Source of the DNA: Malacoraja senta
Taxonomy: Eukaryota
Assembly (NCBI GenBank): GCA_038087875.1
Contig: CM075987.1
Coordinates: 25,546,001 to 25,610,000 of the forward strand
Reading direction: 5' to 3'
Length of the DNA: 64,000 nt
Below are positions 57,601 through 60,600 of this stretch, piece by piece; the first letter of the stretch is position 1, and each line of letters starts with the position of its first letter. The translations under genes were made by a program, and so were the position numbers. The notes under the pieces were generated by a model. That model was given only the letters and a program-made list of their open reading frames with translations. It had not been told where the DNA came from and ran no database searches.

Positions 57601-60600
57601 TATTGTCAATGACTATCTCAGTATTTCTGACAATTTGCACCTTTCTATTAAAAAATGATGGTGATGAGCCTACTAAAAAATTGCTGAAATAATCCTCGAT
57701 TGTATTCCATTAATGCAAGTGTAACAAAGATAATAAGCAAGGCCATGTCAGCAAATAAAAATACTTAATTTGTAAAATGTGCTTATCTCTGTTTAAATTG
57801 CTCAGCTGAGATTAAAACAAAGTCATTTTAAATGATGCTATGGATGGGTGGAAATGGTATATAATGGGCAGTGCTGTGGATTAAATTGTTGCATTGGGAT
57901 TCACTGAATGTGTTCAATACAACTTCACCCACAGCTAGCTGTGTGGAAAGGCTCATTTGGAACAGGTCATGTTACGGTTTCAATTAGACGAGTAAAAAAA
58001 AAACTCAAACACTTTCAAGGATAGAGTGGGTGGAAAAAGTTGCCCAGTCAGCAGATTGTCCCCTTCAGAATGGCGGAGAAAGATTTACATCAAGACGCTC
58101 GTTCCAATTGAAACGCCAGAGCCAATTCTCAGGGAGCGCTGCTTGCAAAACGAGCGAGGAAAAGCACGAGTGACTTGTGACAAAGAGACAAAGCACACAG
58201 GACACCACCCCATGGCTTTGGACAACAGGCAGGGAAACGATTGGAACAGCCTTCAAATAATTCACGGAATTCTCTAAAGCAGAGCGTTGCGGCATAAAGA
58301 AGGCATTGGGAGATACAAGTTCATAAGTGATAGGAGCAGAATTGCACCATTCAGCCCATCAAGTCTACTCTGCCATTCAATCAATCATCAATGATCTACC
58401 TCTCCCTCCTAATCCCATTCTCCTGCCTTCTCCCCGCAACCCCTGACACCCGTATATATGTACACAAAAATGCTGGAGAAACTCAGCGGGTGCAGCAGCA
58501 TCTATGGAGCGAAGGAAATAGGTAACGCTTCGGGCCGAAACCCTTCGGTTTCGGCCCGAAGCGTTGCCTATTTCCATAGATGCTGCTGCACCCGCTGAGT
58601 TTCTCCAGCATTATTGTGTACCTTCGATTATCCAGCATCTGCAGTTCCTTCTTTAACACCCGTATATATGTGTCTTCTTCTCATAAACTCATTTAGTTCA
58701 AAGATAGCAAGGCCATTAGCTATGATATTGTCAGCAGTTTGCTTGAATAGGATCAGAGGCCACAGCCTCAGAATAAAAGGACTTACCTTTAGGAAGGAGA
58801 TGAGGAGGAATTTCTTTAGTCAGAGGGTGGTGAATCTGTGGAATTATTTGCCACAGAAGGCTGTGGAGGCTGTCAGTGGATATTTTTAAGGCAGAGATAG
58901 ATAGATATATTCTTGATTAGTACAGGAGACTGGAAAACCAATTAGGGTATATAGTAGCACTATTAACTCTACCTATTTTCGTTCTCCATTAAAAGTTGAT
59001 TTGTCCATAAGGCACAAGAGAGGGAAATTAACAAGGACATAGTTTCATCAAGAACCTGAGGATGTGGTTTAATCAAGAACCAGGTGACATGGGTTTAATC
59101 AAGAACTAGAGGTAATAGGTTTCATCAAGAACCAGGTGACATAGATTTAACAATGAACTAGAGGACATGGTTTAATCAAGAACAAGGGGACATTGATTTA
59201 GGCGAGGTGGGGAAAGATTTAATACAAGCTTAAGGGGCAACTTCAAAGGGTAGTAAGTATATGGATTGAGCTGCCGGAGGAGGTAGTTAGAGTCATACAA
59301 CGTGGAAACCAGCCCTTCGGCCCAACTTGTCCACTTTGACCAACATGCCTCATCTGCATTGGTCCCACCTGCTCGCTGTTGGCCCATAACCCTCTGAACC
59401 TGCCCTATCAATGTGCCTGTCCAAATGTATCTTCAATGTTGTGAGGCAGGTACAATGAAAAAAACTTCAAAAGTATTATCTAGGAAGCCCCAAGGCTGAT
59501 CGAGACTCTGGTGTAGTTGGTGCAAAGTTGTTTAGTTCTTTAGAGATCTGCAGTTTCCTCCCGCACTCCAAAGAGGCACAGCTTTGTTTGTAGGTTCTTT
59601 GGCTTGGTATAAATGCAAATTGGTGTGTGTAGGATAGTGTTAGTGTGCAGGGATCGCTGGTCGGAGCGGACTCGGTTCTGCGTTTTATCTCTAGACTAAA
59701 CTAAACTAAACAGTGCTCAACGTTGGGCTGTTCGGAGGTGAAATTCTCAACGGCAAGGCCAGCAGCATGATCAAGCATGTCACACCCTGGCCACTCCCTC
59801 TTCTCCCCTCTCCCATCAGGCAAAAGGTACAGAAGTGTGAAAACGCACACCTCCAGATTCATGGACAGTTTCTTCCCAGCTGTTATCAGGCAACTGAACC
59901 ACCCTATCACCAACCAGAGAGCAGACCTGAGCTACTATCTTTAATCTGAATTTTCTGGCTTCATCCAGAACACACAGTAGACACACAGTACCAATGCCAC
60001 ACCAGGTGTATATCCGACACCTTTAATCCAGTCAAAAATTCCTGAGCGCACTTGAAATTTCCCCCCCCTGGAAGTTCCCCCGAAAATGTGGCGCCTAGGC
60101 CAGGCCAGGTCGATCTCAACCTCATTGGGCCTTCCGCGGCCGATCGGCGGGGGGAATTTGCCCCCCCGCGGCCAGGGCTCTGGAACTCCGGCCCGGTCAG
60201 AGCCGGCAGATCCGTTCCCACAGCCGACCTCCGAGGCCAAATCCGTGGGCCGGTATCTCGGCTCCTCAGAGGCCTAGGTGGAACGTTCTGGTACACGTTG
60301 GACTCCTCTCGGAGGCCGTGACCTCAGTTAGTCTGGCAAAACGGACAATCCTGCAAAATATCTGGAACCAAGGGTGCCGGAAAATCGGTGGTGGACCTGT
60401 AACTATAAAAGCAAGCAACATCAAATCAGTCGAAGACGTGTGGTTCCGAATGAAATAACATTGGTACCAAGTCAAGTCTATTTGTCACATACACATATAA
60501 GATGTCCAGTGAAATGAAAGTGGCAATGCCTGCGGATTGTGCAAATAAACTACAGAACAGAATAGAACAGAATCTGTATTTACCTTTTTAAAATTAAAAA

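Follow-up and report, generated by a model that had tools for sequence, protein, structure and literature searches.

Insertions of Penelope-like elements (PLEs) typically consist of an inverted, 5'-truncated copy, a tail of 30-40 bases and a target duplication (PMC8557442, PMC3846280). Inverted insertions have been described for Penelope/Poseidon, Neptune, Nematis and Naiad (PMC8557442), and for Pen2a_Av of Adineta vaga, where an allelic empty site was used as it is here (PMC3846280). How the inverted arm forms is called undefined in PMC8557442. Biochemical work on PAc, a Poseidon element of Anolis carolinensis, revealed that the purified protein cuts and extends both strands in vitro, is a predicted dimer and has two reverse transcription start sites that bracket the tail; in the relevant part of that paper the route to an inverted arm is not spelled out (PMC11167929).

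Here we analyzed a window, by which we mean the whole 64,000-nucleotide stretch of Malacoraja senta DNA, that carries such an insertion in one of two near-identical 18-kb copies (Table 1). As in the published PLE insertions, truncation is combined with an adjacent inverted copy at the 5' end, a tail confined to one end, a variable-length target duplication and a pLTR hammerhead motif (PMC8557442, PMC3846280). In contrast to the Adineta examples, the insert comprises two truncated pLTR arms without an ORF, and its duplication measures 15-16 rather than 8-10 bases (PMC3846280). The insertion is real, its naming as a PLE is correct and its mirror-image shape is the usual published PLE architecture; it is an ordinary member of the group. 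Taking site, mechanism and assembly together, we consider it likely that a Penelope-like element inserted into one haplotype and is absent from the other, that its arms were primed at two nicks, and that the assembly set the two haplotypes side by side.

Table 1 Features of the duplicated region, the insert and its relatives in the window.
Feature	Position	Strand	Description
Copy 1	24666..42486	+	Probable insert-free haplotype, ending at the gap
Assembly gap	42487..42686		200 N between the copies
Copy 2	42687..60752	+	Probable insert-bearing haplotype, starting at the gap
Empty site	40428..40443	+	In copy 1, within an older dispersed repeat
Left target-site duplication	58446..58461	+	15-16 bases; final 2 bases also fit the element's internal end
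Inverted arm	58460..58546	-	pLTR, 87 bases, 5'-truncated, tail-less; ends at the family's internal 3' end; GAAGC at 58528
Direct arm	58547..58621	+	75 bases, 5'-truncated; hammerhead stem II and mutated GAAA box (58561); CUGANGA box absent
Unpaired tail	58622..58658	+	34-37 bases, direct arm only; final 3 bases overlap the target duplication
Right target-site duplication	58656..58671	+	
Solo arm	11845..11957	-	Tail-less, 15-base target duplication; nearest relative of the insert's left arm
Sister copy	17743..18208	+	GIY-YIG C-terminal 78 residues (17743-17979), followed by the 3' region, a hammerhead-like motif, the pLTR and a tail
Nested fold-backs	20534..20918		Two family inserts, one arm tailed and the other tail-less in each; target duplications 12 and 14 bases

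When copy 2 was aligned to copy 1, a single net insertion of 210 bases was observed at 58446, in copy 2 only, bracketed by a perfect 16-base direct repeat. This agrees with the sequence-only reading, which had placed a filled site in copy 2 and an empty one near 40428 in copy 1. That reading also gave a 15-bp duplication and a 195-bp insert; both are real, with a small margin to be added. At the empty site 15 of the 16 target bases agree and the 16th, at a CpG site, is C rather than T, so that the duplication is 15 or 16 bases long and the insert 195 or 194. Among 300 random position pairs, the same search returned a repeat of at least 12 bases in four, all at the 30-base search maximum and probably representing tandem repeat. 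Other copies in the window of the host repeat into which the element inserted align straight through the site without an insert. This host repeat (40299-40700 and 58320-58930), which has many relatives in the window, looks to us like the 3' terminus of a CR1-type LINE.

Folding of the insert gave -93.6 kcal/mol (z -22.8), a value that none of 200 shuffles reached, and the fold involves its arms: the palindromic part extends from 58460 to 58621, with a 4-base loop at the centre. The whole insert had been described as palindromic, which holds for these arms and not for the unpaired tail. The inner 19 base pairs of the hairpin are perfect and include a GAAAC-to-GAAGC change common to both arms, the two changed bases pairing with each other, and the central arm-to-arm junction is without microhomology. 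Single-arm RNA folds were no more stable than shuffles in four of four cases (z -0.36 to 0.42). The arms mismatch at two of 75 aligned sites (58523 versus 58566, T/C; 58468 versus 58613) and by an 8-base deletion in the direct arm, where the letter at 58613 is a T-to-A change. The T/C difference and the deletion had been recognized before; the difference between 58468 and 58613 completes that list. Mutation after insertion could yield the two substitutions (Poisson P 0.14-0.22 at the divergence of the 18-kb copies). With no ORF and no working ribozyme, the insert is most likely inert.

The proposed PLE identity was borne out by the sister copy, which couples a GIY-YIG end to the same pLTR, and by the hammerhead motif. 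The 78-residue frame of this copy (17743-17976) matches 15 of 102 candidate proteins, the best at 83% and the next at 73%, both from Leucoraja erinacea, with further matches in Rhincodon, Hypanus and Heptranchias; by these best matches the host would probably be a skate or close relative. In a Pfam scan of six of these proteins, GIY-YIG was found in all six (above the cut-off in one) and RVT_1 in three. The only strong RVT_1 match, in candidate protein P0004, comes from a protein that fails to align to the RT fragment of the window and is possibly a chimeric gene model; no Pfam match was obtained with the endonuclease and RT fragments of the window itself. RT fragments upstream of an older-subfamily pLTR near 13109-13470 are 58% identical over 45 residues to P0006 and agree at 16 of 19 with P0010. 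The pLTR of the sister copy is 94% identical to each arm of the insert. Thus, the endonuclease-linked pLTR and the domains of its relatives identify the insert as a scrap of an endonuclease-bearing Penelope-like family. A CX2-5CxxC linker between reverse transcriptase and endonuclease marks the Neptune and Nematis clades (PMC8557442); a CX4CxxC linker is present in five of eight aligned relatives, and the endonuclease fragment of the window starts downstream of the linker region. Judged by the relatives' motif, the source element would be a PLE of Neptune/Nematis type and PAc would belong to a different clade (PMC11167929).

We aligned 42 arms and copies of the family from the window, excluding second-haplotype duplicates. 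The left arm of the insert is identical to the solo copy at 11856 at 81 of 82 positions (98.8%). A search for target duplications around 27 family units found a repeat of at least 12 bases in four, the remainder being at chance level or having none; the duplications of sister copies measure 15, 14, 12 and 7 bases, the last within the chance range. Over the element, contig depths add up to millions, compared with about 20 for the unique flanks; this is no copy number, but it shows that the family is very abundant. Scans with the family pattern gave no match in viral contigs and none in metagenome contigs.

Two other identities were rejected. A MITE or DNA transposon does not fit, since the tail lies outside the palindrome and solo arms have their own variable-length duplications. 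Non-LTR retrozymes are likewise short, non-coding, pLTR-derived and hammerhead-related, with one chondrichthyan case; those are head-to-tail tandem units with complete ribozymes, whereas the insert is a head-to-head truncated pair with a broken core (bioRxiv 10.64898/2026.07.22.740005).

Several further arrangements of the family were seen in the window. Two copies at 9523-9760 and 13109-13470, 94.7% alike over 206 bases, have RT-coding sequence joined almost directly to the pLTR; this internally deleted derivative is possibly a non-autonomous subfamily. At 20534-20918 the younger fold-back is inserted in the tail end of the older one, with nested duplications, and at 23101-23400 a middle-aged copy apparently lies, oppositely oriented, within an older copy. 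In all four sequencing runs described below, joints link the tail of the element to 61157; these were set aside: their short side has only 20-28 letters, the intervening sequence is unread and 61157 is the start of another abundant repeat. That repeat, about 300 bases long with a tRNA-like head, occurs at 61157-61434, 21305-21618 and many other places, and its head-to-head pairs form larger palindromes, e.g. at 35874-36450. It appears to resemble the elasmobranch HE1 SINE. At 12320-12838, repeats of 78 bases, about 98% alike, form a tandem array that is open in several frames.

Fuller copies of the family carry a hammerhead-like motif. In the consensus of 19 aligned copies, the core boxes are accompanied by an additional base ahead of stem II, by G10.1 pairing with C11.1 and by a step at 15.2-16.2 that is palindromic, features shared with the minimal type I hammerheads of metazoan PLEs, for which close-set motifs in opposite orientation, as here, are also mentioned (PMC4209133). 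Compared with those published motifs, stem II of the family has four pairs (89.5% paired) and helix I about two, and the insert itself has an incomplete core, the CUGANGA box missing from both arms and A15.1 changed to G (PMC4209133). Covariation in the family motif was not above shuffles (87 of 500 as high), and Rfam returned no match at the gathering score in the window; the 39 weak matches between 9000 and 24000 included no hammerhead family and were mostly microRNA-type hairpin models placed on palindromes, far below thresholds. The ribozyme call is therefore based on the anatomy of the motif. For changes at A15.1, 10- to over 100-fold losses of hammerhead activity are reported (PMC3088659, PMC4075628). 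Cleavage by the ribozyme is dispensable for insertion in vitro according to PMC11167929, and a source carrying the GAAGC change could thus still be mobilized. Several family copies have 5' ends near the first hammerhead box or the predicted cleavage site, these being rough alignment ends only.

Across 17,759 aligned bases the 18-kb copies show 158 substitutions (about 0.9%), of which 86 are transitions and 42 are CpG transitions, and they also differ by 48 internal indels; the differences are patchily distributed. Many one-base indels separate the copies across 24666-60752, and a short tandem array (59040-59200 versus 40820-40920) accounts for a difference of 52 bases. Four small deletions of copy 1, within 57600-58343, are absent from a contig of run X19 and may be consensus errors.

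A gap between adjoining near-identical copies is a listed mark of false duplication, and the heterotype false duplications described in PMC9516828 show the same adjacency with a gap; here the judgement comes from the assembly and from contigs. Contigs of public runs were aligned to 57600-61600, with four of the 24 listed runs (X1, X19, X20 and X22) contributing. Contig depth, which gives no copy number, was similar inside and outside the duplicated part in X19 (20.1 versus 23.4), X20 (2.8/2.6 versus 3.0) and X22 (31.4 versus 35), and in each of these runs one contig spans from the duplicated into the unique part. The depths of X1 do not match in this way (13.6 inside versus 4.6-9.5 towards the end of that part). 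Run X19, possibly the source sample, has a 790-base contig that differs from copy 2 at only three letters; of these, the two that are listed agree with copy 1 and lie 160-220 bases upstream of the insertion site. Among the matches listed, none joined the two sides of the empty site and no contig spanned a filled junction. We also considered the letter at 60738 as proof that copy 1 continues into the flank of copy 2, and discarded it, this letter being common to all four runs and the sole difference between the X19 contig there and copy 2.

Since the copies abut at the gap and contig depth is not doubled, we infer two haplotypes, with the insertion heterozygous. The copies are very probably alleles, and the 18-kb stretch is a probable false duplication in which both haplotypes were placed side by side across the gap. 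A true tandem duplication, with the element later entering one paralogue where it could be fixed, would explain the substitution divergence of about 0.9% with its real CpG decay, and the case for allelism comes from contigs rather than individual reads. Both copy boundaries, however, coincide with the gap, the hallmark of false duplication (PMC9516828), and the undoubled depth in three runs, together with the contigs crossing into unique sequence, also speaks against a tandem duplication, which we judge distinctly unlikely. The sequence-only reading had proposed a recent insertion segregating between alleles. Allelism is probable from the gap, the divergence and the contig depth, a young insertion is probable as well, and segregation is likely.

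Run X1 comes from another organism, about 93-95% alike. From its 76th letter on, one of its contigs matches 58656-58776; the match breaks off exactly at the right duplication's first base, with no run into the tail, and this organism appears to lack the insertion, a hint read with the contig's first 75 letters unseen. This contig break, the host-repeat copies without insert and the near-identity of the left arm to the solo copy at 11856 together suggest that the insertion is most likely young and derived. Conversely, the insert could be old and the empty site secondary, produced by clean loss between the direct repeats or by dropout of the hairpin in sequencing. Near-perfect hairpins between direct repeats are prone to deletion, and copy 1 may contain consensus errors. 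However, the left arm matches another young copy at 98.8% identity, X1 appears empty, and the empty site differs by one base from the filled repeat, making such a secondary loss extremely improbable.

The 3' ends of ten young or middle-aged arms fall into two classes, five at reference positions 138-139 (the tail end) and five at 102-110 (internal), and each of the three fold-backs among these arms has one end of each class. Two solo copies, at 11856 and 11314, end at the internal site and have their own target duplications. These two classes resemble the two start sites that bracket the tail in PAc (PMC11167929). Seven hand-picked primed ends share 2, 3, 1, 4, 0, 3 and 1 bases with the element, where by our estimate about 0.3 bases each would be expected by chance; six of the seven thus share 1-4 bases, whereas the PAc study reports no homology between the RT start and the cut DNA (PMC11167929). 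Followed in the 5' to 3' direction from the target end on its side, each arm runs antisense to the RNA of the element and can therefore represent a first-strand cDNA primed by one of a pair of staggered nicks.

The sequence-only reading had noted the GAAGC change in both arms, with the consensus kept at 11924 and 20820, and in this it was right. From it two explanations had been drawn, one arm being templated from the other or both coming from one source. GAAGC occurs in three of the 33 window sequences that cover the site, namely both arms of the insert and one arm of an older copy at 16119, and not in five other young arms. A private change common to both arms was observed in two of eight fold-backs, compared with 28 of 445 old and 3 of 19 young unrelated pairs (binomial P about 0.1, by hand). 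As this is no clear excess of arm-shared changes, GAAGC fits a common source and is weak evidence for copying. In a separate fold-back at 61951-62140, both arms share a private A-to-G change that is absent from 28 other old arms.

Self-priming, as proposed in PMC3846280, would have a single cDNA fold at the centre and copy itself, so that one arm is a copy of the other. The presence of GAAGC in both arms and its absence from the five other young arms suit this route, as do the 4-base loop and arm differences few enough to be later mutations. Copying of this kind does not predict, however, that the tail-less arm shares its internal end with the solo copies at 11856 and 11314. In addition, the left arm has at 58523 the letter of the separate copy at 11856, the right arm having the commoner one, and in the fold-back at 20673, with 6 mismatches in 89 sites between its arms, a variant of one arm recurs in the copy at 11314 and is absent from the partner arm, an agreement that is possibly chance. 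We therefore regard self-priming as unlikely. The claim that one arm was templated from the other is not supported, given the same tail-less end, the match to 11856 and the two mismatches and the deletion between the arms; a single source for both is plausible, and is expected of any single insertion event.

Two further routes to the shared change can be weighed against independent priming. GAAGC may have arisen in one arm after insertion and passed to the other by hairpin repair or arm-to-arm conversion, which would agree with the perfect inner 19 base pairs that hold it and with the pairing of the changed bases. The mismatch between 58523 and 58566 nevertheless survives five bases away, and older fold-backs retain 2-11% arm mismatches, so conversion is not pervasive and this origin seems improbable. 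The whole palindrome could instead be a mobile, non-autonomous unit descended from a palindromic source. Such a unit would account for the shared change along with inherited arm differences, and fold-backs are frequent in the window (eight pairs compared). Yet the three young or middle-aged fold-backs have distinct centres (5' ends at reference positions 16/20, 8/11 and 60/57), and no second copy with the same centre or deletion occurs in the window, which leaves a mobile palindrome very improbable.

Consequently, our model favors priming at two staggered nicks. The GIY-YIG endonuclease would nick both strands 15-16 bases apart, and from each free 3' end the element RNA would be reverse transcribed, starting in one case at the tail end and in the other at the internal site about 36 bases upstream. 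Both cDNAs would halt near hammerhead stem II and then join head to head, and repair of the staggered ends would yield the target duplication. Both would derive from a source lineage carrying GAAGC, probably with two RNA molecules or a pair of pLTR copies as templates, and not by arm-to-arm copying. More tentatively, and with some doubt, we hypothesize that fold-backs in general may be two target-primed reactions at staggered nicks, run on two different RNA templates by a dimeric enzyme, each reaction beginning at its own site, and that a lineage with a ribozyme crippled by the A15.1-to-G change may still be mobile in this fish. Among open-licence papers on skates, taken without supplements, we found no description of this Penelope-like family, and the titles and abstracts of the open-licence literature contained no test of two templates for fold-back PLE inserts.

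The locus flags a probable 18-kb false duplication in the assembly. Its filled and empty versions fix the nick positions and both start sites, and a single insert cannot settle how inverted arms form. If the two-template model is true, the abundant and partly polymorphic inserts of this family, with known empty sites, would be a natural data set on inverted-arm formation. More modestly, the insertion suggests recent Penelope-like activity in a cartilaginous fish.
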